A stretch of DNA of 64,000 bases. It comes from Balanoglossus misakiensis (Eukaryota; Animalia; Hemichordata). This document shows, in pieces, positions 22,483 through 64,000 of the stretch (position 1 is its first letter; each line of letters opens with the position of its first letter). Both the position numbers and the translations under genes were made by a program. Location of the stretch: the NCBI GenBank assembly GCA_040954595.2, contig CM082596.2:9754461-9818460 (forward strand), written 5' to 3'. The notes under the pieces are model-generated. The model searched no databases and was not told where the DNA came from. It saw only the letters and a program-made list of their open reading frames with translations.

Positions 22483-23034
22483 TGGGAGACGTGTAAACTG
22501 CGGAAATGTCGAGCAAATCTCGTGACAATTGCAAGGGAGTGGATGGTTGTTAGTGAAGATACCAAACGCGAATGTGAGTTGTTCTGTGCACGCACCAGAT
22601 GGCTGATAGAATTCGCGTGCCGCACAGAAGAATAAAGCATCGAGTTTCGTAGCATGTTTACGCCATCAGCACATTGTATCGAATTCAGGTACGATGTAAC
22701 GTTATCCTATACCACAATATCCCACCTAAGGCATACATGCAAAATTACTTCTGCTGCGGCGAGAGGTCTCAGAGAGGGAAAGTCTCACTATACAATCCCA
22801 CGACAGTCAAAAGATAAAACTAAAAAAATTCGGTCTAAGTTTGGTACACTTTCTGTTCATTTTGTTTAAATGGGAGAGTTCCCGGAGACGAGGATGGTAA
22901 CTGTACTTGTATAGCAAACAGAGGTAGAAGTACAGTGAATTATTGTTGTATTTCAACAAGATTGTTTCTGTATATCACTCGGTTTGAAATCCCTACAGTG
23001 TTTGGATCTGACCATTTTCCGTTGATATGTAATC

Positions 23035-39269: not shown

Positions 39270-41870
39270 TTAAGAGAAATAACAACACGTTCAATTTTAC
39301 TGATCATACATCTTTAACACAATTTCTCAAAGAATGTTTGGTAACTGGCTTTCAGCATCTTTGCTATTGTCAACGTTTTGCCATCTCTAAACATCATGAA
39401 GAAAATAGCTTAGAACGAGTACCCTCGTAAACCACTCAACATTTTGTGTGTTTGTTTGTGTGATACCATGAGGCGATCGATGATATGGTCAGGGCATTAT
39501 GGCCAAAGGGGACCATACCTGTCCTTTCTAATAAGGGCTACACAAAGAGAACATTGTTTCTTGTTATCTAAATTTGACTGCATGGGCGAATTACATTTTC
39601 AAGCTGTTACGTACCGATCCCAACATGAAAATTTAGCATTCAAGGCTTTTGAATGAAATTAAGATGAAGAGAATTTAACTGTCCCTGCATACACCTATGC
39701 AACTATGAAGGACACTATGATTTCTGTGTTTATAATGATTCATCTTGGCGTGTATGTGATCATGCACTATCCTAGTCTAGTATCTAGCCGTCAACTTTGC
39801 TTCCAAAAATAACATCTAGATCAAGCATGCCACTGGCCCAATAAAACCTGATAGCCAAGTGATCATAGGTTAGCATGACATTAAACTGAGTGCGGCTGAA
39901 ACACTGTTCGCTTACAATCGACAATTGTGTCACCTTGAATGAACTCGCACAGGTCAGAAAGGTCATTGTCTGTTGATATGGTAATTGGTATCTATGTGGA
40001 GTGAGCCACTGAAGAGATGCTAATCAGACTCGAGAATGATTGACTATACAGTAATACAGACATAGATTGAAAACTTTGGATTGTGATAATAAAATATGAC
40101 GAGCAATTTATTACTAGTAAAAACTTTGTACGTCCAGCACAAACAACAAACAGTTTCCATGATGTCATTGTTAAAAGTTGTGTGCCCCACTCACAGTCTC
40201 TCGATCCAACACAGACACCCCACTCACAACTGACGGATAGACTGACTGACTGATTCACCTTTCCACAGATGTTTGGACAGTCATTTGATGTCTTGTAGAA
40301 CAAGTCAGATTCATGGACTAATATTTTAGGCGTACAAAACGCGCATAGCACAGAGCTGGTTTGAGCTGACTTGCAATTGGAGCTAACATGCAAATGTGAG
40401 CACACATATATTGCCGTGTCTACAAGTTGCTGTCTGCAGTGTTGAATTTCATCGACAATTTGTCAAGTTTTCACAACTTTAATTTTGCTGCGAAACGTTC
40501 TGTCCGGGTGGTAATTTGTAAATGTTGTCGTTCAAATGTTTCAGTCCACTTGAACCAAGAAAAATCTCAGCAGACGGATATTTATTCTGAAACACCTGTT
40601 GATAGATTATGGGTGGTCATGATGAGACGGACAGCGTAAATTCAGTTCAAAAGTAACTTACCTGTGGGTCTTTATCTTCCTGGGAAGCCATTGCATTGTT
40701 GTGTCATTAACATTGCCTTGAAATTCATTCACAAATTACACCATAGCCCGATGTTGCAGTCTTGAGTTCAACTGGCAAGTTAGTTTTGTTGGGATTGCGT
40801 CGTCTAGCTAATCATTTGATTTTGAAGACTGTATCTGTATAAAAGTCAATAAGTAAATACAAGCTGCACTACAAAGAAAAATAAGCATCTATTTGTCAGA
40901 ATCATGATGGCACACAGAGTATTTATGAAACTGTTATCAGTTTTGCAGATTCGATTGTACACAGCCATAAATGGCAAAACAATCCCTGCACAAAATGTAA
41001 ATATAATGGGTCAAACAAAATATATTGCGGAAGCTGCAATTAATATTACACAATTCTCATTCCACGTTCTCATGTTGGTTTTTGGCGACATTCATGTGAT
41101 GGTAATGACTACTTGGTTTACTATTGCAATGTGAAGTTATTAAATTAATTTGCTTTTTCATAAATAGTGGAACACATAACTGAAGTTTTGTGGGCCAAAC
41201 TTGACTTCATATCTGCACTCTTCATTCTGTCAACATTTAATTAATCCACATTAATTGTAGAGTTATCGAGTCAGTCAGAGCAATTAGCACCCTTCCCAGG
41301 TACTCAAGCTTTAGACTGTCAGCAGTCATCACTCCCCAGGCACGATCACAACTCCCAGCATTTTTGTAGCAATGATATAAAATTATTCATGTCATTGTTG
41401 TTAGTGAAACAAATTGTTTTTCAACCACATTCTTGAACACCAATTATTGTGTCTGTAATTAAGCTATTGTGTTATTTCTCACATACTTAAAACATAAATT
41501 GCTAGAGAAAAACTACAGAAGGAAAGTGTATACAGAATGACAAAAGGAAAATATATGAATGTCGAAAGATTGTGAATTTCTACCCTCCCCTGGTGGTGAT
41601 ACACTCAGGGTCAATAGCTATCCATGCATGTTCCCAAAACTATCACAGAGAAGGGGACGCTTTTCGGTATCATCACTGTCTTTGAAAATGATAAAAAATG
41701 GTACATCTTACAACATGACAATGTTCAAATGAGATTTGAAATACGGATGGGTGTCTAAACCATAGTTCTTTATATTAGAAACATTGTTATTGCTTTATAT
41801 TTGTATTATGGCATTAACTGTCCCAGTTTTTGTAAATTAGGAGCTAAGGGGGCTTTTGTCTCATTTTCTT

Positions 41871-42452: not shown

Positions 42453-42551
42453 AATCTAATCAATGCCGCAGTGAAGGGTGATGTTGCAAAGATTCAGTCG
42501 CTGATAGCTGATGGATATGATGTCAATGCAAGGGGTAAATACCCAGGGCAG
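42453..42551 (+). CDS. Ankyrin exon A (N-cap-like), phase 0-0
   Basis: ttacag|NLINAAVKGDVAKIQSLIADGYDVNARGKYPGQ|gtaagt, 99 nt. Confidence 0.88.
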
Positions 42552-45500
42552 GTAAGTGTTCGTATTGACCAATGTTTTATACAGAGTCATCGCTCAGGGC
42601 TAGCGTTTGATATTTAATTTTTCACATGCGGTGCATGCAGGAACTTAAAAAAATTGTGTGTAACTGTATTTCAATTACGTGCAACAAAATAACGATAGAC
42701 AGCCTGGGTTTTTGGTAAGTAACAACTTTTAATAGAAATATCTTTTTAAAATAACGAATTTTGTTGAAATAAAATGGATTCTTGGTGCAAACAAGATATT
42801 CCTAATGTCAATTCTTCCACAAAGATAAACTTACAGACACGGAGAGGTCTGCTGCAAGCAGTATTTTTAGGGGTCAACTATGGTGTTTCAAATTCTCTGT
42901 GGCAAGAACTAATTCTCAACTGGGGTGTTTTTCAAGGTCCATCGCACTATTCTGTTTGCAAATACATCATTGCAGTTTGCCACGCCGCTTTCTATAGCAC
43001 CCCTGATGCTGTTACTGTAGTAGCACTAGCTGAACCCCTGAAATGTTCCAGGACCACTTCAACTGTTCACATGTAATATTTTATGCCAGCATTTGAGCAG
43101 AGACGTTTCAGAAACATTTCAATGGTTATGAGTGACTGGCTTTTCACACAACAGTAACACTGAATCAACTAGATATCTATGAACTTCCAAAATACCACAC
43201 ACTCCCAAAATGATATCACAACACCACATTTAGATTGTGCAAAAACAGACCTACACTAGCCCACAAATATAAATAATCTCAATTCAGCGCAGACTTTTTC
43301 ATCAACAGTTCCAGTTTTACCTAGTGTGAACATGGTATCAGTCTACAGTTTGGTTCAATGTGGTTCAACCACATACAGTAATACCTGTCGAAATGGAACA
43401 TGCCGTATCTGGAAAACTGTCTATAATGAACACGTTTTCCTGTCCCCTTGACATAGAACCACGTGTTAAAAGAACCTTTACAAACCAGAAACGTCTGTAA
43501 ACTGAACAATTTCTTCTGTCCCTTTGGATTAGACAGGTTTTACTGTACATGTGTTTTGGTCATAGAGAATTGTCACTCAACCTTAGAAAATACTATTATT
43601 ATGATCTTTCAGATTGAAATCAATATCAGTCTATTACTGAAATAACACACCATCGTAATCGAAACCATTATTACAATAGTGACTGAAGCTCATTGTGATG
43701 AAATTCCTAGAGTTTCCTCATCAAAAGATCAAGCAGTTGACTCACATTGCAAGTATCAGATTTGTGATGTCATTTTTATTCCAACATTAAACGTCTTTAT
43801 TCCAGAATGATTCCACAGCATTGCATGCAGCGTCCTTCAAAGGTAAATTGGATGCTGTCAGGATGTTGATTAGCCATGGTGCAGATGTCAATGCGAAGGA
43901 TGAGGTACGTGAACTGACTTATCACTTTATTATGGATAATGTGGCCACACAATTGGATAATAAAAAAATGCCTTTGAAAAAGACCTAATTACAACACTCT
44001 TATTTTCATCCAAAATTACTTTGCATGATCCAAATTCAATGGGAAGAAACAAGCTAACCCTGAACAAGAAGAGGGAAAGGCCAAAAAGTATTACCCATAC
44101 TGATTTAGTTTTACTAACCATGATACCCTTGGGATCCAGCCATAGGAAGGACAGTGGGACACATTGCACTCTAAATTTAACAATCTTTACAATTTAGCCA
44201 AAGATGTTGAACCATAGTGTATTTGACACATTTGTTCCGAATGAATAAATATGTTCCAGAAAGTAAATTTTGATGCATTTTTTTGTGTTTCACCAAATTT
44301 AACAAATTTTTATTTTTTTTCAAGCCATCTCTGAAATTTTGCTGGCAATCTTTTTTTAAATCTTCCACATCCCCTCCATCCTTAGTTAAGCTATGGAGTC
44401 TAAAACATCCAATGTTAAAAACTATATGACCAGTCAAAGCGTTTTCCTCGCTGTTAGAATCAATTGAGATTCTTCACCGTCATTCTTTGATCTGTATTCA
44501 TTTTAACAGTCGGCAATTTTCATTTTGTGTGTAGAAGGACTGTGCATTATCCTTTCAAATCAGTCAGTATGCCATTCTTGCTTGTTTTTTGCAATATGGC
44601 TGATACTTTTGATATTTGTTTATTTATTTGTAGGTTTGTTTGTTTGTTTGTTTAAAGAAACCTCATATTACATTTCAATTTTTGTGACATTGTTCCCATG
44701 CTTCTCCTTCATTACTTACAGGATGGAGTCACCCCTTTGAATGATGCAGCAGGGTTTGGTGGTGAAGGCTGTGTCAGATTGTTATTGGAACACAAATCTG
44801 ATGTTACCATACAAACCCAGGTAAATACCAACTTGACTTCTGCAGGTTAATCTATCAGTATGGAATGATTTATTCATTCATTTTTTGTTTGTTTGTTTGT
44901 TTGTTTGTATGTTTTTTGTTTAAGGAAAATGACACATTACGTTTAATTTTTGTGACATTGTTCTCATGCTCCTCCTTCATTACTTACAGTGGGGAGACAC
45001 CCCTTTGCACTCTGCAGCAAGGAGGGATGTTGGTGAAGGCCGTGTCAGATTGTTATTGGAACACAAAGCTGATGTAACCATACAAAACAAGGTAAATACC
45101 AACCTGACTTCTGCAGGTAAATTCTAAAAGTATGAGCTTTCTCAATAGTGCCATTTCCTCTGTAGTTTTCTTAGTAAATTGTGTCTGGGATACAATGTAT
45201 ATATTTGTCCATTGCCCTTTGAATCAAAACTACTCCCTCCATTGGTCAGGTGTTGTACAGATAGACTGATGACAGTCCATGCCAATCCTATCACAGAACG
45301 TATCAGATAGGGTGATTGTCTGTCGGCCTCCAGCATCTGCCAACTCCTGTCTGGTACCTAATACAATTCATCATAAGGAGGTGCCATATAATTTGTCACT
45401 GTCCTTTGAATCAAAATTACTTCCTCTCGGCCAGACACAGGCAAGTATTGATTCATTATGGTGATGTGATTGTCTCTCCTATATCTGAGACATTTGATCT

Positions 45501-48500
45501 CCACTGTGAGCAATTTGGAGTTATGAGAAAGGGGGATTGTCTCCAGCATCTGCCAAAAACTGTCTTGTTGAACATAAGGATGTTGTTGTTTATTGCATTG
45601 TTTATCGTCAATCTTTTGTGGTTTAAATAATAATCTCATTATTGGCACAGCGATTTCTGTCTGTCCTTCTGTAGACAGATTTTGTTCCACTCATATCTTG
45701 AGAGAAATTGAATCCAATGATATGAAATTTTGTATGTAGCATTGTTATGATAAGTTCTAGATCTGATAAGATTTTGGTGGGTATGGCTTATTAATAAATT
45801 CTCCTTTGCATATTTGTGTGTGGTCGAACGTTAATTCACTACATACACATGTAGAATAACATAAACAGTGTCTTGTATCAAACATAATTAATGGAAAAAG
45901 GGAAGCGAGAAAGAGAGAGACTTTGTCCCTTTAATATTCAGGAATTTACTTTTCTTGTATACGTACACTCTTATAATGATTGTAAATCTTGAGAATGGCT
46001 ATCAAGTTGACAACCCTCGCACAAGTACATCATGTACATAAACAAAAATAGTCTGGTTTGTGGAGCCTCCTCCCTTTTTTACAGGAAGTACTTTCAAAAT
46101 ATGTTTATGCAATCAGTCCACACTCATGCTCAGTTTTGTGTCAGAATTATAGTCATAGCAACATTTTGAGTAAGACTTTACCAGAAGAACTTGTTTTCAT
46201 TGCGGCTCTGATTGGGGCCGTTTTAAAAAGGGGTTTGTTTGGCAACTTTTAGGACCGAAGGACGGATGCGCAGCCATTGTCACATCACACATGTCAAGTT
46301 GGGGACTTGCTGGGGGCAGGGGTGCTTGTTGACGGTGCCGAGAGGAGTCGGCCAGTTTTAGCTTGTACTTCAGGCCGAATAGCACAGTGCCAACCCAATT
46401 TACCTTTTATAAACTTTATAAAATATAATACATTTTAACATTAAATTGTTCAGTCGGATGATTTTTTTCATCATAATGAGCAACACAGCGGCAGCATTTG
46501 GATTGCTCTTTCTCTTGGAAATAGCTCAAGCTTATAAAACATGAGGTCTGTGCGGCTCCACTCCTCAGCTTCTCATCACTGTCTGTCACTTACCCAATCA
46601 TTTCAAAGGGGGTGATCAAGATGGCCAGAACAGCAAGTTTTAACCAACCAGGTTCCAGAACCTGAGAGAAGGTGCTAAAAGCATGCAATAGATATATTGA
46701 TGAGATAAACATTGGGAACAATAGGATGAAGGGAAGTGTGACTGGTCCAATCTGTTCTGTTTTAGTGTGGGGCACGGCTGGAATGGTTACACAAATGTCC
46801 TTGAAAGTTAGTGCTACTGTGGCTTCCAATGTTATCTCTTATGAAGAGTTTTGATAATTTTGTTTGTTCTTTATATTACATGAAAAGAATGACTGCATTC
46901 ATTGCATTTAATTTTGTTTGCCACACATTCCCATTGGCCACAGTGTCCACTGAAGTCTTTCTTTGGTTATTAGACTTTTTGATGCAGTGCGATGGAGAAA
47001 GGGAATCAGTGTTAACTTTCTTCAGATGGTTTTTTTTGGTGAAATTCAAGTTTTTTTTATTTAAACGCTATTTATACAAATAACGAGTGACACCATTGCA
47101 CAACTCTACTTGATATTGTTGGACCACTCAGTAGAAATTTATTTTAATGATGATTGATTTATCCCTTGTCACATACAATTTCTCTGTTATTTCCCCTTTG
47201 ATCGACATCGTTCAGTCTGCACAGCTTGGCTACTTTGTGCTGAGAACAGTCTGATGCCCTCCTACAGGAAATAAACATAGTTTGGTTAGCTCAGATGTTT
47301 GATCTGTTTCCACATAAATCTCCACATATCTCAAATTTTTCATCATATTGGAGATGAGATGTGATTATTCAAAATTCTTCTGACAATTCTACTAAATGTC
47401 ACTGTAGTTGTTTGCTAAATCTTCTTCTATATTGTGCAGGTTGCAAAAATAAATTGGTCCCATTCACTAACATCACATCACTGTCAGTTTTTTGATAGAA
47501 AATCATAAATAAAGTTCAGTTTAAAATTGGTGTATTGGTTATCCGTAATGTTATCTGTTTTGCAAGTTGTCAAATTTGAGTTTGTTTGTGAATTATTTAT
47601 AGTAACTTTTCTTTCTGTATCAACTGGCAGATATTTTGTCAGAATTCTTTTAGCTCGTTAAAATGCATGTATAAAACTGAATTACACATCTTGTGTGTAG
47701 AGTCGATACTGTTTCTGTTCAAATGCCATTTACTGTTGGTTAATATTATCCACAAGGGAGTTTGCGATTATTTGTCGTTTGTGTGTTTGTTCGATCGTTC
47801 ATTTTAACAAAATAACCTCATGTTACATTTCATTTTTCTTCTCATCATGCTCCTCCTTCATTACTTACAGAATGGAGACACCCCTTTGCATTATGCAGTA
47901 AGAGGGTGTCGTGGTGAAGGCCTTGTCAGATTGTTATTGGAACACAAAGCTGATGTGACCATACCAAACAAGGTAAATACCAACATGACGTCTGCAGGTT
48001 AATTCTGTCAATGCGGATATATTTATTCATTTTATTGTGTGTTTGTCTATTTGTTTGTTTGTTTGTTTGTTTGGTTAAGGAAATTTCACATTACATTTCA
48101 ATTTTGTGACATTATTCTCATGCTCCTCCTTCATTACTTACAGACAGGAGACACCCCTTTGCATTATGCAGCAAGGAGGGATGGTGGTGAAGGCCTTGTC
48201 AGATTGTTATTGGAACACAAAGCTGATGTGACCATACAAAACAAGGTAAATACCAACCTGACTTCTGCAGGTTTATTCTATCAATGCGGATATATTTATT
48301 CATTTATTTGTTTGTTTGTTTGTTTACGAAAATTTCACATTAGATTTCAATTTTTTTGACATTATTCTCATGCTCCTCCTTCATTACTTACAGGATGGAG
48401 ACACCCCTTTGCATGATGCAGCAAGGAGGGATGATGGTGAAGCCCTTGTCAGATTGTTATTTGAACACAAAGCTGATGCTAACATACGAAACAAGGTAAA

Positions 48501-51500
48501 TACCAACCTGACTTCTGCAGGTTTATTCTATTGATGCGGATATATTTATTCATTTATTTGTTTGTTTGTTTGTTTGTTTGTTTGTTTGTTTAAGGAAATT
48601 TCACATTAGATTTCAATTTTTGTAACATTATTCTCATGCTCCTCCTTCATTACTTACAGGATGGAGACACCCCTTTGCATGATGCAGCAAGGAGGGATAA
48701 TGGTGAAGCCCTTGTCAGATTGTTATTGGAACACAAAGCTGATGCTAACATACGAAACAAGGTAAATACCAACCTGACTTCTGCAGGTTTATTCTATTGA
48801 TGCGGATATATTTATTCATTTATTTGTTTGTTTGTTTGTTTGTTTAAGGAAATTTCACATTAGATTTCAATTTTTGTAACATTATTCTCATGCTCCTCCT
48901 TCATTACTTACATGATGGAGACACCCTTTTGCATTATGCAGCAAGGTTTCGTGATGAAGGCCGTGTCAGATTGTTATTGGAACACAAAGCTGATGCTAAC
49001 ATACAAAACAAGGTAAATACCAACCTGACTTCTATAGGTTAATTCTGAAAGTATTGAAATATTTTTTTGTTTTTTTTTGTTTAAGGAAATTTCACATTAT
49101 ATTTCAATTTTTGTGACATTATTCTCATGCTCCTCCTTCATTACTTACAGGATGGAGACACTCCTTTGCATTATGCAGTAAGGGATGGTGATGAAGGCCA
49201 TGTCAGATTGTTATTGGAACACAAATCTGATGTGACCATACAAAACAAGGTAAATACCAACCTGACTTCTGCAGGTTTATTCTATCAATGCGGATATATA
49301 TTTATTCATTTATTTGTTTGTTTGTTTGTTTATGGAAATTTCACATAATATTTCAATTTTTGTGACATTATTCTCATGCTCCTCCTTCATTACTTACAGG
49401 ATGGAGACACTCCTTTGCATTATGCAGCAAGGAGGGTTGGTGGTGAATGCCTTGTCAGATTGTTATTGGAACACAAAGCTGATGCTAACATACAAAACAA
49501 GGTAAATACCAACCTGACTTCAGCAGGTTTATTCTATCACTGCGGATATATTTATTCATTTATTTGTTTGTTTGTTTGTTTAAGGAAATTTCACATTAGA
49601 TTTCAATTTTTGTGACATTATTCTCATGCTCCTCCTTCATTACTTACAGGATGGAGACACTCCTTCGCATGATGCAGCAAGGAGGGATGATGGTGAAGCC
49701 CTTCTCAGATTTTTTTTGGAACACAAAGCTGATGCTAACATACGAAACAAGGTAAATACCAACCTGACTTCTGCAGGTTTATTCTATTGATGCAGATATA
49801 TTTATTCATTTATTTGTTTGTTTGTTTGTTTAAGGAAATTTCACATAATATTTCAATTTTTGTGACATTATTCTCATGCTCCTCCTTCATTACTTACACG
49901 GTGGAGACACTCCTTCGCATGATGCAGCAAGGAGGGATGGTGGTGAAGGCCTTGTCAGATTGTTATTGGAACACAAAGCTGATGCTAACATACAAAACAA
50001 GGTAAATACCAACCTGACTTCTGCAGGTTAATTCTGAAAGTATTGAAATATTTTTTTGTTTTTTTTTGTTTAAGGAAATTTCACATTATATTTCAATTTT
50101 TGTGACATTATTCTCATGCTCCTCCTTTATTACTTACAGGATGGAGACACTCCTTTGCATTATGCAGCAAGGGATGGTGATGAAGGCCATGTCAGATTGT
50201 TATTGGAACACAAAGCTGATGTTTACATACAAAACAAGGTAAATACCAACCTGACTGCTGCAGGTTTATTCTATCAGTGCGGATATATTTATTCATTTAT
50301 TTGTTTGTTTGTTCGTTTACGGAAATTTCACATTATATTTCAATTTTTGTGACATTATTCTCATGCTCCTCCTTCAGTACTTACAGGATGGAGACACTCC
50401 TTTGCATTATGCAGCAAGGAGGGTTGGCAAAGGCCTTGTCAGATTGTTATTGGAACACAAAGCTGATGCTAACATACAAAACAAGGTAAATACCAACCTG
50501 ACTTCAGCAGGTTTATTCTATCAATGCGGATATATTTATTCATTCATTTGTATGTTTGTTTGTTTAAGGAAATTTCACATTAGATTTCAACTTTTGTGAC
50601 ATTATTCTCATGCTCCTCCTTCATTACTTACAGGATGGAGACACTCCTTCGCATGATGCAGCAAGGAGGGATGGTGGTGAAGGCCTTGTCAGATTGTTAT
50701 TGGAACACAAAGCTGATGCTAACATACAAAACAAGATAAATACCAACCTGACTTCAGCAGGTTTATTCTATCAATGCGGATATATTTATTCATTTATTTG
50801 TTTGTTTGTTTGTTTAAGGAAATTTCACATTAGATTTCAATTTTTGTGACATTATTCTCATGCTCCTCCTTCATTACTTACAGGATGGAGACACTCCTTC
50901 GCATGATGCAGCAAGGAGGGATGGTGGTGAAGGCCTTGTCAGATTGTTATTGGAACACAAAGCTGATGCTAACATACAAAACAAGGTAAATACCAACCTG
51001 ACTTCTGCAGGTTAATTCTGAAAGTATTGAAATATTTTTTTGTTTTTTTTTTGTTTAAGGAAATTTCACATTATATTTCAATTGTTGTGACATTATTCTC
51101 ATGCTCCTCGTTTATTACTTACAGGATGGAGACACTCCTTTGCATTATGCAGCAAGGAGGGTTGGTGGTGAAGGCCTTGTCAGATTGTTATTGGAACACA
51201 AAGCTGATGTGACAATACAAAACAAGGTAAATACCAACCTGACTTCTGCAGGTTTATTCTATCAATGCGGATATATTTATTCATTTATTTGTTTGTTTGT
51301 TTGTTTATGGAAATTTCACATTAGATTTCAATTTTTGTGACATTATTCTCATGCTCCTCCTTCATTACTTACAGGATGGAGACACTCCTTTGCATTATGC
51401 AACAAGGAGGGTTGGTGGTGAATGCCTTGTCAGATTGTTATTGGAACACAAAGCTGATGCTAACATACAAAACAAGGTAAATACCAACCTGACTTCAGCA

Positions 51501-54500
51501 GGTTTATTCTATCACTGCGGATATATTTATTCATTTATTTGTTTGTTTGTTTGTTTGTTTAATGAAATTTCACATTAGATTTCAATTTTTGTGACATTAT
51601 TCTCATGCTCCTCCTTCATTACTTACAGGATGGAGACACTCCTTCGCATGATGCAGCAAGGAGGGATGGTGGTGAAGGCCTTGTCAGATTGTTATTGGAA
51701 CACAAAGCTGATGCTAACATACAAAACAAGGTAAATACCAACCTGACTTCAGCAGGTTTATTCTATCAATGCGGATATATTTATTCATTTATTTGTTTGT
51801 TTGTTTGTTTAAGGAAATTTCACATTAGATTTCAATTTTTGAGACATTATTCTCATGCTCCTCCTTCATTACTTACAGGATGGAGACACTCCTTCGCATG
51901 ATGCAGCAGGGAGGGATGGTGGTGAAGGCCTTGTCAGATTGTTATTGGAACACAAAGCTGATGTGACCATACAAAACAAGGTAAATACCAACCTGACTTC
52001 TGCAGGTTAATTCTGAAAGTATTGAAAGATTTTTTTGTTGTTGTTTTTTTGTTTAAGGAAATTTCACATTACATTTCAATTTTGTGACATTATTCTCATG
52101 CTCCTCCTTCATTACTTACAGACAGGAGACACCCCTTTGCATGATGCAGCAAGGAGGGATGATGGTGAAGGCCTTGTCAGATTGTTATTGGAACACAAAG
52201 CTGATGCTAACATACAAAACAAGGTAAATACCAACCTGACTTCTGCAGGTTTATTCTATCAATGCGGATATATTTATTCATTTATTTGTTTGTTTGTTTG
52301 TTTGTTTGTTTGTTTGTTTGTTTGTATAAGAAAACACATTTCATTTCAATTTTTGTGACATTGTTCTCATGCTCTTCCTTCATGACTTACAGAAAGGAGA
52401 CCCCTTTGCATTTTGCAGCATATGTCATATAATTTTGTCATTGTCCTTTGAATCAAAACTGCTCACTCTGTCGGGTCAGGTGTTATACAGGCAGGTGTGG
52501 AAACGATTTGCATTCCTTTCTTTCTTTCTTTGTTAATCAATCAATTGTTGTTCTATTCATTGATCATCACCCCCCTGTATCATGAACATCACAAGGCAAT
52601 GCATTGAATTCAGCTCTTCCAGCTAGTGGCCGCACTTGCTTGATTTCCTGCGTGTGTCTCTGGGGATGAAAAGAATGCATATGCGTCTTTTCCTAATTTG
52701 CATATTTTGAATGGGTGTTCCAACGTGAGTAACCGTTCATTGACTTCCAGCTCGCATCGAATACACGTTAGGGACTGTTTTTACGGCTGGGGGGGGGGGC
52801 AAGTTTGGGTCATCGATTTTCAAAATCAGGCCGACCCCCCCTTCACCCTGGACCAAAAAATGATGACCCCCCCTTTGACAGACCCAAAATATGATGACCC
52901 CCCCCCCCCCCCCCCGCTGAAAACATTCGCCGTGCTGATCCTATGTACACTGTATGCAATAAAGGGAATGAGGCTCCTCACACCTCAATTATAAATTTCT
53001 TAAAGTAATTGAAGTATATATAATAGTATATCGTTGCAATAAAAAATATATGAACAAAATAAAATGACAAGTCAATACAATAGAAAATTTAAGAAAATTT
53101 TGTAAAATACGGTGCTCAAAGTTGCATTCGAATGAACTCTAAAGCAAATTAACTCAATGTTAGGCAGGACAAATTTTAATTTTGCCACTCCACTCAAAGT
53201 AAACATCGGGGGTAGGGTGGGTAGAAGTCTGCCGTGGTACACTAGACAAACCAGCGAATAAATGATATGTGGCGAAGAATGGAGGGGGAGGGGTGTGCGA
53301 GGGGGTGTCCCCCTCCCACATAAGAAAATTTTGTAAAATATGTAGCTCAAAGTTGCATTTTTATGAACTCAAGAGCAAATTATCTCAGTGTTTGGGAGGA
53401 CCTAAAATTTGACTTATAGGTGTGCGTGCCTCAATCATCTGATGAATGTATTCATCTATGAAAATTTGTGATCCATTTTCAGAACGTAGTGACTCCTTGT
53501 CAAGAGGCAGGAAGGAAGGCTGGGCGGGGTGCAGGCACCAATATTGCAAGAGCCTTTGTGGAATATCATTTTGACAATGAGAAAGTATATCAGGCAAGTA
53601 TTGAGTTAGATTTAAAAGGGCAAGGTTACTCACTTTTGATAAAACAGTGAAATTGTGTCAGTTACCGACCACCTCTATATAGTGGCCACTTTGTTACAGT
53701 CCCTGTGCAGTTAACATGGGCAATTATTGACTTGTATATACAGGCCACCTGTCTATTAAGGCCAATTTAGGAAAGTCACTCTGACTGGCCAATTTGGACT
53801 GTGAGATTTGGCTGTATTTCAGTTATTTACCAATTGGCTCTTTCTGTTGTTCTAAAAGATGCTCATTGACCAGTTTTATAAAGCTTACCGGCAACTCACA
53901 CCTGACACATGGATATTTAAATCCATTTATTTTTTACCAAAATTATTTAACAATAGTGTCCATAATATGCATGGTGTGGTATAATTGTCATAATCCTGTA
54001 CTTTACAGCTAGTTCATTTAAGCAATAAAACACCCCCAGCCATGGTATACCACTCGATTTTGACCAGTTCACGACATATACGCACTCGCTATCGCTCCTG
54101 CGTATATGTCGTGAACTGGTCAAAATCGAGTGTGTATATGTCGTGAACTAATCAAAATCGAGTGTTATACCATGGCTGGGGGTGTTTTATTGCTATTATA
54201 TTATGCCAGTATATTGAAACTTTGCATAAAACATTTTAAAAAGGCATTTTCTTTGACTATGCTATATGACTGTGGTATATGGCTAATATATCACAGTCAC
54301 GTGTCGTGTCTCGACCAATAAAATAGTGTGATTTACACCATCAATATACTGGTATAATATAATCAATCATATATGTTCTGTTTTCATCAATGAAAATACA
54401 GGCAGTTATAAACTCAGTGTATGACAGAGATGACAAAAGAGACCTGATCAACCATCATAAGGTACGTCATAATGTTGATAATAAATGGCTATGAAAACAT

Positions 54501-57500
54501 ATCATATCACTAGTGTATTTGAATTTATCTTCTATATTTATAACATGGAAAACATAAAACCAGACTGTCATATAAATTTTTAACTACATACTTATTCTAT
54601 TGTGCCAGCTAGGAAGGCATTAAAGGGACATTACCTATAACTTTTGGCTTTATTTCCAGATTTTTTTCCTTTTGTGTACAAAATGCAATTTCATGTTCTT
54701 CTCCAAACTGCATGCTAATATGCCCAGTACTCAACTTGTGTATATTGCCTGTCTCTGTAACAACCATTGTTATTGTTGACTCATGAATTCTAGTCCGGAC
54801 TTCAATTCAAATTTTGCAAAATAACAATGTTGAATATACACAAAGAGTACACAACTATCGAGGTGTGCGTCACAAAGAGATGACAAACTTATGCAAATAG
54901 AAGTTATGGAAAAAATATGTTAAATTTGGCAGCTCATGAGGCTTTAACTATGCATTATTTCTATAGTGTTAATGATAGCTTCCACATCATAAGCACATCA
55001 TAATAGTGTAGTTAACAATGTAAATTATATTTTTTGATACTAGCGTTTTTATCAATATCTTTTCTGAAGCAAAATGTCATGTGACTTCTTTGAAGACATG
55101 GTGTTTAATTGAAAGGCATGTAAATTGAGTGTAAAAATTCCCAATATATATAACACATAACATATCTGTTCAAATTCTGACAGGTGTTTTCCCGCCAAAA
55201 AGAATTCACAGCACTCATGAGACAACCTGGTGTCAAACGTAATACTACAAAGATTGTGTTAGCTGGATACGGTGCGAATGGCAAAACTACGCTCAAAGAA
55301 TCATTGCAGCGGGTGTGTAGAAATCTTTGATTATAAATGCCAATTATTGCTGTTTTTGAGGAGTGAAGGATTTGTGCAAATATTAAAGTTTTCATGAAGA
55401 CTACATTTCAGTGGAAATCAGGGTACATATTTTGTTGACCAACCAATTCTCCAAATATTTTATATTATTACAATATGATTGGCATTAATCAAGCTTGCTG
55501 ATTGGCCCGAGTCGCGGTTTATATCCTCAACGAGAAGACCTGAACCCTGAACAGTGAATAACTAAAAAATAGCGTCAAGGACACTGTGGTCCCATTTGAG
55601 GATTATGCGGAAACAGTGACACACCATAATAAAAATTACAGGTGACATTGCAAGCAGATCTGCAATAAGCATATCTGCTCTGGATGACAAGATATGGAAA
55701 AGTAGGTCAAAGGTCACCTGAGGTTATGCAAAATTTGGGCAAGAAATGTTGACCCTATACTGGTCCATGTTCAACAAAAATCAAACCTATAGCCCTATTG
55801 GTTAGCCTGGAATTAGGTATGCACATAATTAATGAGATATGCAGGTGTCACAGGTGACCCCCAATTTTGGCTTTTCAATTTTAGTCCCAACCCTCCAAAC
55901 GCTAAGTCTGTACCTGCTCTGGATGCCAAGATATGATAAAGTAGGTCAAAGGTCACCTGATGTCATGCAAAAGTTGGGCAAGAAATTTTGACCCTATACT
56001 GCATATACTGGTCCAGGTTCAACAAAAACCAAACCTATAGCCCTATTGGTTAGCCTGGAATTAGGTATGCACATAATTAATGAGATATGCAGGTGTCACA
56101 GGTGACCCCCAATTTTGGCTTTTCAATTTTAGTCCCAACCCTCCAAACGGCAAGTCTGTACCTGCTCTGGATGCCAAGATATGATAAAGTAGGTCAAAGG
56201 TAACCTGAGGTCATGCAAAATTTGGGCAAGAAATTTTGACCTCATACTGGTCTATGTTCAACAAAAACCAAACCTATAGCCCTATTGGTTAGCCTGGAAT
56301 TAGGTATGCACATAATTGATGAGATATGCAGGTGTCACAGGTCACCCCCCAATTTTGGCTTTACAATTTTAGTCCCAACCCTCCGAAAGCCAAGTCTGTA
56401 CCTGCTCTGGATGCCAAGAAATGGTAAAGTAGGTCAAAGGTCACCTGAGGTCATGCAAAATATGGGCAAGAAATTTTGACCCTATACTGGTCCATGTTCA
56501 ACAAAAACCAAACCTATAGCCCTATTGGTTAGCCTGGAATTAGGTATGCACATAATTAATGAGATATGCAGGTGTCACAGGTGACCCCCAATTTTGGCTT
56601 TTCAATTTTAGTCCCAACCCTCCAAACGCTAAGTCTGTACCTGCTCTGGATGCCAAGATATGATAAAGTAGGTCAAAGGTCACCTGATGTCATGCAAAAG
56701 TTGGGCAAGAAATTTTGACCCTATACTGCATATACTGGTCCAGGTTCAACAAAAACCAAACCTATAGCCCTATTGGTTAGCCTGGAATTAGGTATGCACA
56801 TAATTAATGAGATATGCAGGTGTCACAGGTGACCCCCAATTTAGGCTTTTCAATTTTAGTCCCAACCCTCCAAACGGCAAGTCTGTACCTGCTCTGGATG
56901 CCAAGATATGATAAAGTAGGTCAAAGGTAACCTGAGGTCATGCAAAATTTGGGCAAGAAATTTTGACCTCATACTGGTCTATGTTCAACAAAAACCAAAC
57001 CTATAGCCCTATTGGTTAGCCTGGAATTAGGTATGCACATAATTGATGAGATATGCAGGTGTCACAGGTCACCCCCCAATTTTGGCTTTACAATTTTAGT
57101 CCCAACCCTCCGAAAGCCAAGTCTGTACCTGCTCTGGATGCCAAGAAATGGTAAAGTAGGTCAAAGGTCACCTGAGGTCATGCAAAATATGGGCAAGAAA
57201 TTTTGACCCTATACTGGTCCATGTTCAACAAAAACCAAACCTATAGCCCTATTGGTTAGCCTGGAATTAGGTATGCACATAATAAATGAGATATGCAGGT
57301 GTCACAGGTGACCAATATTTTGGCTTTTCAATTTTAGTCCCAACCCTCCAAACGCCAAGTCTGTACCTGCTCTGGATGCCAGATATCTGAAAGTAGGTCA
57401 AAGGTCACCTGAGGTCACCCAAATTTGGGCAAGAAATTTTGACCCTATACTGGTCCATGTCCCACAAGAACGAAGCCTCTAGCCCTATTAGTTAGCCCAG

Positions 57501-60500
57501 AATTAGGTATGCACATAATTAATGTGTTAAGCAGGTACTACAGGTGAGCCCAAAATTTTGCCTTTTATTTTGGCCCCATTGTGCTCACTGACCAATAGAC
57601 AGTCACTGTACAGGACTATTGCACAGACCAGAATTCCACAATAAGACGTGGACATAGCTTAACCATAGAGGTATAAGTAAAGGTATAACTTTAATAAAAA
57701 GACTAAAAAATTCATAAAAAATAAAGCATCGATGATATCAACTTAACACTTACGGGTCGATGTGAGGTTGACATATGGTACATGCATACCAATTTTTAAA
57801 GCAATCTGACGAGTAGTTGTTGACTTTCAGAGTTTTGATAAATTTCACATTTTTCCAGCTAATTTGCATATTTTTGGGCCTGGCAACTTCGTTTGGACAA
57901 ACTCCCATCTACAGCCCAGCCTGCACCTACACACCAAATATTGAGGTGATACGCGCAGCGGTTTTCAAGTTTTTGATGTGGACGGACATACAGACATACA
58001 TCCATCCATACATCCATACATCCATCCATACATACATACAGACGCAACCGATCCCATAAGGTCCCATGGTATATATGCCTATACCAATGGGACCTAAAAA
58101 TAACCGAAATGGGACACATAGAACAGAACGCCTCGCCTCGCTCAGTGATTATTTCCCGCCAAATATGCTAAGTTTCACCTGGGAGGTCTTATATCCGGAA
58201 TCAAATACTCTCGCTTGCCGTTTATAAGTTTACAACCTCTAAATTGTGAGAAAATCATCACTTATGTTCATATATTACAATGCAGAACTTTGTGCAAGCA
58301 AAATTGACTCGACGGTCAGAAGAGAAAGCACCTTTACCAGGGAACATGCAGTACACACCAACACCCGCCATAGATGTAGCCACATTATCCATACCCAAGA
58401 TTGGCAAGTTCAGTGTGTGGGACTTTGCAGGACAAACAGAATACTATGTCACACATAATATGTTCCTAAGAGTCGAGAATGCAGTGGTTTTATTGGTCTT
58501 CAAAATGGCTGAGGACAAGCAGGATGTAGTTTGGACACCAAGAAAACTTATGCAACAGCAGAGACAAGAGGTGGGTTGTTGTTTTTTTTGTTACTGATGA
58601 TAAGTGATATTAATATTTTGGGCAATTATGGAATAAAGGTAAAGATGAAACTCAGAAAGGGCACAGTGCATATATTACAATATTTTTTTTATTACTAAGC
58701 AGTGCATCAGTGAATTAGGTGGTGCAATATTGTGAATGAAATTAAAGTAAAGATGAATGGCACAGTATATATATTTGTGAAACATTTATCTCTTTTTGTT
58801 TTTATCCAGATTTAGGGACTGATTGAATATAATATGATTGATGACTTTATATTCTTCTTCATGTCTTTCTTTAATAGGTGACATCATGGCTTGCATTCCT
58901 TAAGGCAATCATACCACAAGATATGGATGAGGGTGGGAGTAAACCAAAAGTGATATTGATTGGAAGCAAGGCTGATTTGTTGAAAGCTGAACACAAGAAA
59001 GAAGGTATGTTCAGTACATGTTTAGATAAAAGGTGACAAGAGCGAGGGTATTTACACAATTGGGAGCCTGGTGTGGGAGTACACTCAATCTGATTAAAAC
59101 CAGATGTAGTGTTGGGCGCTGTCTTTACCTTTGCTGATTCTTGGCTGTTCTGTTCGAAAGGGACACCCATACTACATCTGAACCTATGCAAAAGGAGATC
59201 TCATTACTATTCAACATTTTACCTATTCAGATAGTGTGATTGATGTAGAATTTCACCGGATGCTTTCAAAAAATACAAAACAGCACCAAAGTGGCCTCTT
59301 CTGTGTATATGTCCATACTTTGTAAATAAAAATCTATCAAGAGATCATTACTTTTTTCTTGATAGCTGAATTGGTGATGAGGGAAATACTCCAGACAGCT
59401 CAGAAGACCTTTGGCAAATACCTGAATATTCTTGATGAGACATTCATACTGAATTGTCACAACTCGCAGCATAATGATAAGCACAGATTGCGTGAATGTC
59501 TACGAAGTGCAAAGGTATGGTTTTATAGATATTCTGCAATGTGTGACTGGATTGAACATGTTAATTCATTAGGGCCATATTTGACAAAGGCATGCTTTAC
59601 ATCACCTTAATACTCTCATGTAATGCATAGAGTCCAAGAAAGCCAACTATCAGATAGTAATAACTGAACTCTTATCAGTGGGAAATAAGTCAAGGTTGTA
59701 TACTTTTGACTTACCGGGTATCAGAACTGTCTAAAAGGGCGTTCTCACTGGCACGTTTACACTGGTGCTACATCGGTGTAGATTTGACACCGACGGAAAA
59801 AAACAAGTGAGAACGCTTTACACCGGTGTTGGGCCGGTGTTAATTTGCGACAGCGATGGGTGGTGGGTCAGGGCCAGTGCTGGGCCAGCGCTCCGACGCA
59901 AATAATCAGTGAGAACGCAAAGATAAACAAACACCGTTCAAAAGCGCCACCCTGCAGTGCCTTTTGGGTATGTTTATTAGGTATAGCCCATTGTCTTTGG
60001 TCAGTTTCCATTGTTAAGTCAATCACACTGGATGCGAGTGGTTTTCAAACCATTCGCAGTTTGCCAGGTCTGCAACACTTCAGTCTGCTACCAACTTCCA
60101 GAAGGTTCTCTCGATCACCAAAAAGCCGAGGCATTTTCCATTTATGGATTAACATTCATTTACTTCTAAACATTATCAAAACTGTCACAAAGTCGTCTAG
60201 AACGTATATGCAGGTATATAAACTGCAACATGTTGCTGTAATGTCCTCGAGATCCTCAATTTTGTTAGTTGCCGTGTTGCTAAACATGGCCATTTAGACA
60301 GTGTTTATTTCAAAACAGTGGCCAAAAGTTTAGTGTGTGGACGCAAGGAGATTCTGTGGGCTAATCCCCTGTGTTTGCAGAGAGTAAACACTGGCATAAC
60401 ACCGGTGTCCAAACTTTTAGTGAGAACAAGACTTTAAATAATGGGCTGTGTCTGTAAAGGGTGAATATCACTGTTGCCAGTATTGTTCGAGTTGCTTTTC

Positions 60501-61453
60501 TGAATGTTCATTTCACCAAACAACAGTATTATGGGGGTCATCGTTAAACCCCGGTGCGGGGTATAAAAGACCCCCCAAATCAGTGGCGAATCTTAATGCC
60601 GTTTGACTGACAACAGACAACACCAACGATCTTGGCTCTATGAAAATCGGCCCAAACAGGTCCAAGCATAAAGAATTACACCACACAACGACAGTAGTTG
60701 GCTTTATAAACACACACAACATAAAGTTATCGACGAAAAAGTACACGAGCTTATGAAACAACGATGATTTTGGGAGAAATCTGGTTTCAGTGCTTTTCAG
60801 AAGCGTCCCTGGGAAACAATAACCACGCCATTCAAACAGTTGTCAATCGCGTGGAAGTGTGAAGTGTTCAATTATTTTCTGTGTACATGAGAGCAATTAC
60901 ACAGTCATTATGCACGACGACCACTCCCAAATAAACAACTATACAAACACACGTTAATCCGAACCCCAGGACTTTCCGCACCGGGGTTTAAGACGTTTTT
61001 GAAACATCTCAGATGAAATACTGGCGTAAATTATCATGTGTGAATGGTTTAAGTGGTCCTGAAACGTCTCAGATTTGAGACGGCTTTGGTCAGACCTGAG
61101 CCAGTTTAAGGATTAACACCTCTCCGCAACCCATTGTTTGTGTGTGTGTACACAAGGCGACTTAAAGGATTAATGCTCTGTGTTTACTATTGGCAAATAG
61201 TGTCTATGAAATGTTTTGAATTTTACCCTGTCTGGACATGAACCTGGTATATGTCGCTGTGTTAATGTTACAGAGAGAAGAATACATACCAAAGTTGTGT
61301 GCTAAGATACTTGATGGAAGAAGCAAATGGATTGTGAGCAGTTTCCCGGTCATCAAATGGAAAACATATATAGAAAGAGTGAAAGAGTTGGATCGTTTCA
61401 TTGATGAAGAGTTTCTAAAGAAAGCTACGAGATACCTTCACTACCTTGGGGAG
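42453..61453 (+). CDS. Multi-exon ankyrin-repeat Roc-COR (ROCO family, DAPK-like Roc) protein gene; start exon not identified, 3' part probably beyond the window
   Basis: 22 single-ankyrin exons (42453-52223, three with dead splice sites) followed by phase-compatible exons 53483-53593, 54402-54461, 55184-55312 (P-loop GYGANGKTT), 58286-58570 (YTPT, WDFAGQTEYY), 58878-59004 (ILIGSKAD), 59366-59514 and 61274-61453 (COR start, ..RYLHYLGE). Confidence 0.9.
43376..43545. mobile_element. Tc1/mariner-type MITE with TA TSD
   Basis: TA-cagtaatacctgtc...gacaggttttactg-TA. Confidence 0.72.
43806..43904 (+). CDS. Ankyrin exon B, phase 0-0
   Basis: ttccag|NDSTALHAASFKGKLDAVRMLISHGADVNAKDE|gtacgt, 99 nt. 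Confidence 0.9.
44722..44820 (+). CDS. Ankyrin exon C (diverged member of the cassette family)
   Basis: ttacag|DGVTPLNDAAGFGGEGCVRLLLEHKSDVTIQTQ|gtaaat, 99 nt. Confidence 0.75.
44990..45091 (+). CDS. Ankyrin exon D (cassette family)
   Basis: ttacag|WGDTPLHSAARRDVGEGRVRLLLEHKADVTIQNK|gtaaat, 102 nt. Confidence 0.8.
47820..52420 (+). repeat. Tandem array of 18 ~250-bp intron+ankyrin-exon cassettes plus one truncated remnant
   Basis: Exons: 47871-47972, 48144-48245, 48394-48495, 48660-48761, 48914-49012, 49151-49249, 49400-49501, 49650-49751, 49900-50001, 50140-50238, 50387-50485, 50634-50735, 50884-50985, 51125-51226, 51375-51476, 51629-51730, 51879-51980, 52122-52223. All are 99 or 102 nt and open. 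Remnant at 52393-52420. Confidence 0.95.
53483..53593 (+). CDS. C-cap-like/linker exon with a GC donor
   Basis: tttcag|NVVTPCQEAGRKAGRGAGTNIARAFVEYHFDNEKVYQ|GCAAGT, 111 nt, phase 0-0. Confidence 0.7.
54021..54363. mobile_element. Hairpin-type non-autonomous element (long palindrome + second inverted pair)
   Basis: agcaataaaacacccccagccatggtata...tataccatggctgggggtgttttattgct (54021-54194), then attatattatgccagtatattg...caatatactggtataatataat. Confidence 0.8.
54402..54461 (+). CDS. Linker exon of the ROCO gene
   Basis: atacag|AVINSVYDRDDKRDLINHHK|gtacgt, 60 nt, phase 0-0. Confidence 0.65.
55184..55312 (+). CDS. Roc GTPase exon with the P-loop
   Basis: gacag|VFSRQKEFTALMRQPGVKRNTTKIVLAGYGANGKTTLKESLQR|gtgtgt. 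Absent from the ORF track. Confidence 0.88.
55564..58100 (-). mobile_element. Helentron-associated non-autonomous element carrying an internal satellite array
   Basis: Termini are the reverse complements of those of 32136-33315, with (CATA/CATC)n at about 57986-58040. Confidence 0.78.
55675..57565. repeat. About 240-bp tandem repeat, about 8 units, with a 727-bp three-unit higher-order repeat
   Basis: cctatagccctattggttagcctggaattagg recurs every 239-249 bp. Identical ORFs at 56285 and 57012 are offset by 727. Confidence 0.93.
58286..58570 (+). CDS. Roc exon (switch I/II)
   Basis: gcag|NFVQAK..YTPTPAIDV..KFSVWDFAGQTEYYVTHNMFL..QRQE|gtgggt, 285 nt. Confidence 0.92.
58878..59004 (+). CDS. Roc exon (G4 motif)
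   Basis: aatag|VTSWLAFLKA..KPKVILIGSKADLLKAEHKKE+G|gtatgt, phase 0-1. Confidence 0.88.
59366..59514 (+). CDS. Roc C-terminal exon
   Basis: gatag|(A)ELVMREILQTAQKTFGKYLNILDETFILNCHNS..LRECLRSAK|gtatgg, phase 1-0. Confidence 0.85.
59737..60432. mobile_element. Possible PIF/Harbinger-like MITE
   Basis: gggcgttctcactg...tagtgagaacaagac degenerate termini, with internal AGTGAGAACGC and ACCGGTGT repeats. Confidence 0.45.
61274..61453 (+). CDS. COR domain N-terminal exon
   Basis: ttacag|REEYIPKLCAKIL..FPVIKWKTYIERVKE..EEFLKKATRYLHYLGE|gtaagt, 180 nt, containing the 'LH..GE' COR motif. Confidence 0.88.
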
Positions 61454-62080: not shown

Positions 62081-64000
62081 TTAATAATAATAATAATAAT
62101 AATACTTTATTTCAGACTTTAAAAAAAAGTCCATATACCCAAAAGAGAGAAGAAAAAAAAACACTAATGAAAATACTCTGGAAAATCTGAAACTGAGACA
62201 CACACACACAAAAAAAAAACTCTGCAAAATTACATGATATACAATTGCTTTCGCCAATGTTTGAAAAATATGCTGTCAGTTGCTCTATCTGATGAACAGA
62301 TCGCATCAAGTAAAACATTAGAAGAATTTTCGAGTCTACACTTAAAACTGTACATATTGCGTCTAAAAACTTCACCAAGTGACAATACATGGTTTGTAGC
62401 AAACATACCCGATGCACTGCAAAATGGCGGAAGACCGAGAAGTCTTCTCCAAACATTATTGTACATAGTTTTAAATTTTTTCATCGGTTTAACTTTAAAG
62501 GATGCCCACAAACTGCAACAGTAAATATTACTACAATATGCCAAAAATACAACTTTCTTCACATCTTGACTACAATGTTGAAAATGTCTCAATAGCATGT
62601 TTGCTCTAACGCAAAATGCTCTTCTCTGTCGTTCAATATCTTCATTATCACAACCATCACAAGATATTACATGGCCCAGATAGGTGTGTTCAGGAACAAA
62701 CTTCAAAGTGATGTCATTAAGTTTAACCGAAGGAATTCTTTGAACGCTCATATTCTTCCCATTAAAAAGCATGCACACAGTTTTACTAGAATTATAAATG
62801 ATATCATAATCCTTGCCATAAATTTCACAAATTCTAAGAAGACGGCGTAGACCCTTAACACTTGGACTGAGTAGAGTCATGTCGTCAGCGTAACCTGAAG
62901 TGTTAGCGCTGACACCACACATGGTACAGCCAACTTTGGCTTTACAGAGTGCATTGATAAGATCATCAATGTAGACATTAAAAAGATAGGGAGAGAGTAC
63001 TCCCCCTTATCTTACACCGTTAGAAACAGAAAACAACTCTGAGGTTTCATTACCCCACAACACAGTAAACAATTGATTTCTGTACCAGTAATATAAAATT
63101 CGAACAGCATACAAGGGAACATTCCTGTCGATGAGCTTGTTAACCAGTTTAAAGTGATTAACTCTGTCAAAAGCTTTTGAAGCATCCAGAAAACAAGTAA
63201 ACACTGGTCCTCCATTGCTGGTGTAGTAGCTAATGATTTCTTTAAATGCAAATAAACACAGGTCAGTTGAATGTTCTCGCTTGAAACCAAATTGTAAATA
63301 ATGAGAGGTAAGAAACTCCTCACAACGAGAAAGTAAAATATGCTCAAAAACTTAAGAGAAAACAGTTGCTAGTGCTATCGGCCGGTAGTTACTGGCATCA
63401 CTACAAAGCTTAGTTTTATCCTTAATAATTGGAACTAAAATAACTTTGATAGCCTCAGTTGGCAGGTAACCATGAACAATCATAGCATTAATACAACAAG
63501 TCAAAATGGGTAAAATAGAGGAGTCTGAGAATTTGAGGTGCTCAGCTGAAATATTGTCAATGCCAGCTGTCTTGTCGTCAGGTAACTTATGTATAGCAGA
63601 AATTACTTCGTCTTCAGAAACATACATATCAGAAGAAAAGTTAACATACTTCATTTTCTCCTCGATGTCATTTTTACCAGTCTGAGCCTGGACAGAATTC
63701 AAAATATCACTGAAATGCTTGTGCCACATAATTGCAATTTCACTCTCACCAGTCGCTCCACCTACAGTGTCAGAAAGTGGCGTTTTTCTGCTAGTTTGCT
63801 TTCTGACTTCCTTCCAGAAGTCGTTCTGTTTGTGGCAGCATAAATTGTCAGCCATCTTGTCAGCCCTATTTTGATTCTCAATCTTTTTACAAGCACGTAA
63901 AGCATACTTAAAACGAGCTCTGAAAGATTTCTTGGTTTCAAAAAGCGGGCCTTGTTTAGGTTTACCCCCATTAACCCATAATAAAAACATGGAACGGGCA
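62081..64000 (-). mobile_element. LINE (L2/CR1-group-like) ORF2 RT and 3' end with (TTA)n tail, disabled by stops
   Basis: NYRPIAL, FLDASKAFD, GVR*GGVLSP, YADDM, YLG. In-frame stops at 63352 and 63007. AATAAA followed by (TTA)n at 62081-62111. Confidence 0.92.

Follow-up and report, generated by a model that had tools for sequence, protein, structure and literature searches.

An array of one-repeat ankyrin exon units in a ROCO gene of the hemichordate Balanoglossus misakiensis, marked by four-unit periodicity and mosaicism

How an animal gene comes to hold a long run of nearly identical exons, each encoding a single ankyrin repeat, and whether such a run serves recognition, are the questions raised by a 64,000-nucleotide stretch of the hemichordate Balanoglossus misakiensis (assembly GCA_040954595.2, contig CM082596.2, positions 9,754,461 to 9,818,460; hereafter the window). 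Here, 18 exon-plus-intron units precede the exons of a Roc GTPase domain in a predicted ROCO gene, and a preliminary description of this DNA had taken them for interchangeable cassettes of a rapidly diversifying receptor. We find that the array has a four-unit period and that its units are mosaics. Our explanation, which we regard as probable, is that misaligned recombination in the germline adds to and mixes the in-frame ankyrin cassettes that make up the sensor of an ANK-Roc-COR(-death) protein, one without a kinase and with an immune or cell-death role, and that damaged units form a weakly selected reservoir. The functional diversification that was presumed earlier is not established by the sequence.

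Tandem Repeats Finder (TRF) reports the array as 17.1 copies of a 250-nucleotide period with 90% matches. In agreement with the preliminary description, it resolves into 18 tandem units of about 250 bp, each with a phase-0 exon for one ankyrin repeat; all 18 exons are in phase 0 and stop-free, and each of the five that were scanned matches Pfam Ank (PF00023) above cutoff. The exons measure 102 nt in 14 units and 99 nt in the other four, the introns 138 to 171 nt, and the splice flanks are near-identical in all units. The mean nucleotide difference between exons is 8.1%, a DNA-level figure that differs from the protein-level index published for fungal repeats. Three exons are identical in sequence, the array encodes 16 distinct peptides, and any two exon-plus-intron units are separated by at least two substitutions. 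No inverted copies were found on the minus strand. At 4.4 kb, the array is within reach of one long-range amplicon. Two older outlying copies, a and b, form a block that is 82 to 84% (∼83%) identical to array blocks and bring the number of one-repeat exons to 20, none of which carries a stop or a frameshift. The earlier statement that the units are free of both holds for the 18 array units, but the interval it covered also includes a frameshifted 19th copy at 52393, a stub followed on its 3′ side by sequence similar to that behind copy b.

How the array arose can be read from the differences among its units. These average 12.1 between units four apart (lag 4) and 14.4 between units eight apart (lag 8), compared to 18 to 22 at other lags (19 to 22 at lags 1 to 3 and 5 to 7); taken together, multiples of four average 14.4 differences against 20.7 elsewhere (permutation p=4e-4). 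A short intron type stands behind units 5, 9, 13, and 17, and the tetrapeptide TPSH, in place of TPLH, is located in units 8-9, 12-13, and 16-17. Among units 2-18, 96 of 253 pairs of informative sites show four-gamete incompatibility, that is, 3 of the 53 pairs lying within 25 nt versus 93 of the 200 pairs lying farther apart (p=5e-5), and the array units are therefore mosaics. Block periodicity and mosaicism are plainly present, as are the phase-0 unit, the open frame through Roc, and damaged units. We infer that four-unit block duplication plus mosaicism is the product of unequal crossover with gene conversion, which bears out the earlier proposal that one or the other had diversified this DNA.

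The gene around the array can be followed as a 30-exon model from 40609 to 61453, with 1,097 stop-free codons (996 without three splice-dead units), of which the first exon, like the GC donor at 53593, is putative (Table 1). The first exon is one of eight ATG-to-donor candidates, and its length fits the 9-12 residues that stand ahead of the next exon in three Ptychodera homologs. That next exon, at 42453, is 48-58% identical to the N-terminus of the homologs P0003, P0010, and P0012 (proteins are cited by our working numbers); scanned alone, it gave no Pfam match. When four homologs were searched against the window with tblastn, the exons were recovered in order, and three of the four also matched the N-terminal cap exon, their first residues lying 9-12 upstream. 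In a tree of individual repeats, the one at 43806 clusters with P0012's first full repeat. Phase 0 is found at nearly every exon of the gene, inside or outside the array.

Downstream, the P-loop, DxAG (DFAG), and G4 (GSKAD) motifs are all present, and the gene is thus predicted to be a ROCO gene whose Roc domain has its G1, G3, and G4 motifs; the switch-I region reads TPAID here versus TPGID in homologs. The largest Roc exon has eight matches, all of them in Ptychodera flava proteins (57-61% identity). In two pairs of annotated P. flava isoforms, the segments that set the members apart are exactly 43 and 92 residues long, the sizes of exon 55184-55312 (43 codons) and of exons 58878-59514 (92 codons), which supports the exon limits. 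The array had been placed upstream of Roc-COR exons, and for Roc this is confirmed (Pfam and motifs), whereas COR is represented by its start only: COR-A spans residues 406-543 of P0003, and the exon at 61274 reaches the COR-A start by homology alone. The gene presumably continues past the window end, where the COR body and any death domain, known from homologs only, would lie. A structure model of P0003 (pLDDT 83) matches LRRK and C. tepidum/bacterial Roc-COR structures, and its last 117 residues (730-846) match death folds with TM scores of 0.72-0.76. The intron between Roc exons 1 and 2 contains a further tandem array (55675-57566) of a 248-bp period, with 7.8 copies and 91% matches; it has a three-unit higher-order period (248, 239, 240), and the one open reading frame (ORF) tested there had no Pfam match.

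Not every unit of the ankyrin array is sound. Three of the 18 have lost an invariant splice dinucleotide (in units 5 and 9 the acceptor, ahead of 48914 and 49900, and in unit 12 the donor, behind 50735), and TPSH replaces TPLH in six of the 18, a variant found in none of 1,870 distinct background ankyrin repeats, drawn from 144 proteins and collected with a hidden Markov model (HMM). The preliminary description, correct in its count of 18, had missed these dead splice sites and TPSH units as well as the copies at 44722 and 44990 and the stub at 52393. A CAG/GT motif at +25, a possible out-of-frame cryptic donor, recurs in array introns, e.g., at 50760.

Table 1. Exons of the predicted ROCO gene and copies of the array unit, in window coordinates.
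Feature	Positions	Strand	Basis
Candidate first coding exon, ATG, 9 codons, phase 0	40609..40635	+	inferred
N-terminal cap ankyrin-like exon, AG/GT, phase 0	42453..42551	+	homology
Non-amplified ankyrin repeat exon	43806..43904	+	Pfam Ank E 3e-10
Older outlying copy a of array unit, 99 nt	44722..44820	+	sequence comparison
Older outlying copy b of array unit, 102 nt	44990..45091	+	sequence comparison
18-unit array, each unit a phase-0 single-repeat ankyrin exon with its intron	47871..52223	+	TRF, Pfam Ank (five exons scanned)
Unit 5: acceptor AG to AT; TLLH in place of TPLH	48914..49012	+	
Unit 9: acceptor AG to AC; carries TPSH	49900..50001	+	
Unit 12: donor GT to AT after 50735; carries TPSH	50634..50735	+	
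19th copy, truncated and frameshifted, breakpoint scar, acceptor intact	52393..52425	+	sequence comparison
C-cap/linker exon, GC donor (inferred)	53483..53593	+	weak match to P0010, P0012
Linker exon	54402..54461	+	homology
Roc exon 1, P-loop GYGANGKT	55184..55312	+	motif
Roc exon 2, DFAG	58286..58570	+	Pfam Roc PF08477 E 6e-8, above cutoff
Roc exon 3, GSKAD	58878..59004	+	motif, homology
Roc exon 4	59366..59514	+	homology
Roc-COR junction / COR-A start	61274..61453	+	alignment to about P0003 386-445

What kind of protein would carry this array is best judged from its relatives. With the Roc-COR region as query, 24 proteins were found (16 from P. flava, 4 from Saccoglossus, 2 from Glandiceps, and 1 each from Branchiostoma and Amphiura), and the closest are, by their predicted domains, "DAPK1-like" proteins of the order ANK-Roc-COR-death that lack a kinase and have expanded in acorn worms. 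In P0003, P0010, and P0012, the counterpart of the amplified region has 2, 3, and 19 full repeats, respectively; three identical repeats are present in P0002, and in Glandiceps P0015 a two-repeat unit has been amplified. Relatives in acorn worms, brittle star, and amphioxus appear to carry separate ankyrin expansions. In the repeat tree, built on 33 columns, the window repeats are inseparable from those of P0012, and the P0002/P0014 repeats and the P0015 repeats form supported groups of their own; these two groups are the only ones for which the tree argues for independent amplification. From 162 proteins, a set biased toward repeat-rich proteins, 58 match Roc-COR over at least 200 positions, and ankyrin repeats occur in 40 of those 58. 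Five or more repeats with a neighbor at least 80% identical occur in 12 of the 40 (4 from P. flava, Glandiceps, Amphiura, and Branchiostoma belcheri, and 8 other ENA records); under a different threshold, high repeat conservation was reported for 0.8% of metazoan ANK/TPR/WD proteins (PMC4986451). Eight ENA records (P0033, P0042, P0064, P0077, P0095, P0100, P0113, and P0135) have at least 21-46 ankyrin repeats, many near-identical, followed by a Roc-COR-like region. Two amphioxus ANK-Roc-CARD isoforms, P0166 and P0167, both database models, differ by exactly 99 residues, which is three ankyrin repeats in register.

The C-termini of the relatives are varied. Among 17 selected relatives, we found Death+CARD+caspase in Asterias, CARD+caspase, CARD, and GT4-conflict in Branchiostoma, and CARD+Death in Amphiura; no recognized effector was found in the nine very long ankyrin-rich proteins of this selection, eight of which are ENA records. 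The starfish, amphioxus, and brittle-star proteins P0169, P0057, P0050, P0166, and P0040, with their C-terminal caspase, CARD, death, or GT4-conflict domains, display effector swapping in an animal ROCO family, and the layout of such relatives would be NLR-like, that is, sensor, switch, and effector. The immune or cell-death sensor role that we consider likely for the present gene is supported by this lineage expansion, the repeated separate ankyrin amplifications, and the varied death/CARD/caspase/GT4 C-termini; such family-level evidence makes likely, in a broader form, the innate-immune role suggested earlier as a possibility.

DAPK1 itself has the order ANK-Roc-COR-death behind an N-terminal CaM kinase. 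The homologs share its ANK-Roc-COR order, databases label them "DAPK1-like," and a death fold ends the closest of them; the role of the DAPK1 Roc domain is treated in PMC4104024. In contrast to DAPK1, they belong to a multicopy family with variable repeat number, none of the 29 relatives scanned has a Pfam kinase, and no kinase motif occurs in the six frames of the window, where one split by an intron could escape. With no kinase found and with homologs that start 9-12 residues before the first ankyrin-like exon, we rejected a DAPK1 ortholog; the ROCO protein is predicted to be kinase-less.

Whether selection has acted on the variation in the array was addressed in several ways. The ratio of nonsynonymous to synonymous differences (pN/pS) is 1.5, a weak hint of excess amino-acid change, as is the comparison of copy a with the array (pN 0.19, pS 0.05, and 0.08-0.13 in flanking introns). 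Codons 8-18 hold 20 of 39 variants, with a nominal p=0.011 that becomes p=0.12 allowing for window choice. Among these 39 variants, 1.8 stops would be expected, and the probability of seeing none in the 18 array units is 0.16; we therefore rejected the lack of stops as proof of selection. Codon-model likelihood tests were set aside because the orderings of fixed and free models were inconsistent and recombination violates the models. Taking as binding positions the randomized positions of a designed ankyrin library (PMC4308713), 4 of 16 relatives gave the 6 or more extractable repeats used here, and variation was enriched at binding positions at p<0.05 in three of the four arrays (P0012, 0.034; P0015, 0.005; P0077, 0.002), P0040 being borderline (0.064). 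This enrichment is framework conservation and not proof of positive selection, because binding positions vary in all ankyrins.

A number of results weigh against our explanation. Exons diverge as introns do (8.1% and 7.9%), and the bootstrap interval of pN/pS is wide (0.63-9.2). In the 20 copies, 43 nonsynonymous stand against 6 synonymous variants (p=0.12); the excess reaches p=0.033 only under kappa=2, a value unsupported because intron variants comprise 14 transitions and 24 transversions. Observed substitutions are tolerated no better than random ones (p=0.35, computed without HMM edge columns), and binding positions in the array are not enriched for variation (p=0.25), so that the focus on a binding surface proposed earlier is seen in three of the four relatives' arrays but not here. 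Neither purifying nor diversifying selection was detected in the array, at low power. Only 11 of the 18 units are splice-intact with TPLH; the other seven are splice-dead or carry TPSH, which contradicts the view of all units as clean, interchangeable cassettes. The dead splice sites have out-of-frame cryptic neighbors at +7, +7, and +25 (the closest downstream AG of unit 5 at +7, the closest downstream GT of unit 12 at +25), and the retained introns of these units contain stops; skipping may therefore not be clean. The 248-bp array in the same gene, apparently non-coding, indicates that local amplification needs no protein-level selection, and the proposed sensor role depends on the architecture of relatives. 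The array looks young, with no visible filtering by selection yet.

These points bring to the fore a near-neutral, minisatellite-like runaway amplification in a dispensable or decaying paralog, in which extra repeats, in frame or skipped, would be tolerated without useful binding diversity. Besides the likeness of exon and intron divergence, it would account for splice-dinucleotide variation at a rate not below the intronic one (three variants in four columns), for the spread of TPSH to six units, for site variability with almost no correlation to the ankyrin constraint profile (rho 0.09), and for the apparently non-coding 248-, 533-, and 146-bp arrays of the window. We nevertheless hold it to be unlikely: the Roc exons are all intact, G1, G3, and G4 motifs included, several relatives appear to have amplified this domain on their own, in arrays that conserve the framework and differ at binding positions, and, as a weak point, 20 copies are without stop or frameshift. 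An assembly artefact, with copy number or order wrong, would be no surprise in tandem repeats, which are error-prone in general; the 18 units nevertheless all differ by two or more substitutions, their variants are shared and periodic, unlike random errors, and similar arrays occur in homologous proteins from other assemblies, so that this is very unlikely.

Other alternatives concern where diversity would be made. Regulated alternative splicing as the main diversifier, yielding many unit combinations from one locus in a Dscam-like or brown-algal-ROCO-like manner, would suit the phase-0 junctions and has counterparts in the amphioxus ANK-Roc-CARD isoform model that lacks exactly 99 residues and in the splice variants reported for Ectocarpus ROCO genes (PMC11378527). 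However, with near-identical splice flanks and three identical exons there is little to tell units apart, and phase 0 is common to almost all exons of the gene, array or not; we regard this as improbable. Somatic rearrangement into cell-specific receptors, hypothesized for Ectocarpus (PMC3341825) and conceivable in so recombinogenic an array, seems hardly credible here, given the lack of inverted copies on the minus strand and a pattern that germline block duplication fully explains.

Germline misaligned recombination thus remains the explanation that we prefer, and its working can be sketched as follows. The intron would be copied along with the exon and all junctions are in phase 0; misaligned recombination would therefore add, delete, or blend whole repeats without frameshift. 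Splice-dead units would be skipped in frame, clean skipping being an assumption, and would persist as a reservoir under weak selection. In the protein, the ankyrin rod would be the ligand-binding part and Roc-COR a GTP-dependent switch, signaling would fall to a C-terminal death-fold domain like that of the closest homologs, and most of the diversity would arise between alleles and paralogs.

The analogy drawn earlier to Ectocarpus ROCO genes and to the repeats of fungal HET-type NLRs is well founded, yet the gene belongs to neither receptor class: it has ankyrin repeats and not leucine-rich repeats (LRRs), and Roc instead of a STAND core. Like the LRR-ROCO genes of the brown algae Ectocarpus and Saccharina (PMC3341825 and PMC11378527), it has a repeat domain ahead of Roc-COR with one repeat per symmetric exon, an expanded family, and inactivated exon copies among live ones with intragenic recombination (here three splice-dead units, one stub, and the four-gamete pattern), and the algal proteins are likewise candidate immune receptors without direct functional proof. 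It differs from them in being an animal gene, in phase (0 here, 2 there), in its near-identical introns copied with the exon, in that inverted copies were not found here, and in relatives whose C-termini carry death, CARD, or caspase domains; for the algae, there are reports of positive selection and of splice variants, whereas our pN/pS interval includes 1 and our binding positions are unenriched, at low power. With fungal NLRs of high internal conservation (HET-E/HNWD WD40 and NACHT-ANK; PMC4986451 and PMC13449251), it shares near-identical tandem repeats, ankyrin included, with concerted evolution, an NTPase switch with a death-type effector, and a turnover of repeats (gain, loss, and shuffling) for which unequal crossover is proposed. 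The fungal proteins, however, have a STAND ATPase core and an N-terminal effector compared to the Roc GTPase and the C-terminal effector of our homologs, and polymorphism in repeat number and positive selection acting on the binding face have been demonstrated in them, while positive selection was not detected here.

Two further systems resemble parts of this design. In the 90-bp-exon arrays of Tetrahymena (PMC6564038), an exon-plus-intron unit of similar size is amplified as a nucleotide-level tandem repeat, and unequal crossover and ectopic recombination are invoked; those arrays encode LRRs in phase 2, number thousands of genes, and are associated with retrotransposons, and the available text describes no Roc switch. 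The prokaryotic AP-GTPase (Roc-COR) conflict systems (PMC8195603) combine fast-evolving N-terminal repeats, Roc-COR, and an interchangeable C-terminal effector (GT4, caspase, or TIR), as do the animal relatives, but are bacterial, with LRR sensors and no exon cassettes. In the open-access literature, supplements aside, we found no description of an ankyrin-cassette ROCO design in an animal.

The family as a whole invites a bolder view, which we advance as a possible but doubtful one: that marine invertebrates possess an NLR-like system of receptors, for the most part undescribed, in which a Roc-COR GTPase takes the place of the STAND ATPase, recombination rebuilds an ankyrin sensor of one-repeat exon cassettes in each allele, exon skipping trims it, and the death/CARD/caspase/GT4 effectors are swappable. 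The present gene would then be a sensor in mid-expansion, whose hypervariable haplotypes set pathogen or non-self specificity. The surrounding region readily amplifies apparently non-coding DNA. A 2.45-kb duplication is present at 99.6% identity (3897-6347 and 7542-9992), together with tandem arrays of ∼533 bp (10870-13113; 91-95%) and 146 bp (21952-22489). Mobile elements are represented by reverse-transcriptase fragments (Pfam RVT_1) of LINE-like type at 62230-63351, on the minus strand, in the intron that follows the exon at 61274; by a LINE-like element at 26488-30264 (partial copy at 23354-24657), with endonuclease and RVT_1 ORFs and a short upstream ORF that matches Baculo_FP_2nd; and by a GIY-YIG endonuclease ORF and an RVT_1 fragment at 1350-2141 and 2530-3180, the former presumably Penelope-like.

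The family-level picture looks more interesting than the single array, which appears young and partly broken. Were the array neutral, it would still be a clear snapshot of how a repeat protein grows by block duplication of exon-plus-intron units. If it is functional and polymorphic, the recombination-diversified repeat receptors of brown algae and fungi would extend to invertebrate deuterostomes, and many "DAPK1-like" genes would be recast as a GTPase-switched family of immune or cell-death sensors, which would bear on the origin of recognition diversity in long-lived invertebrates.

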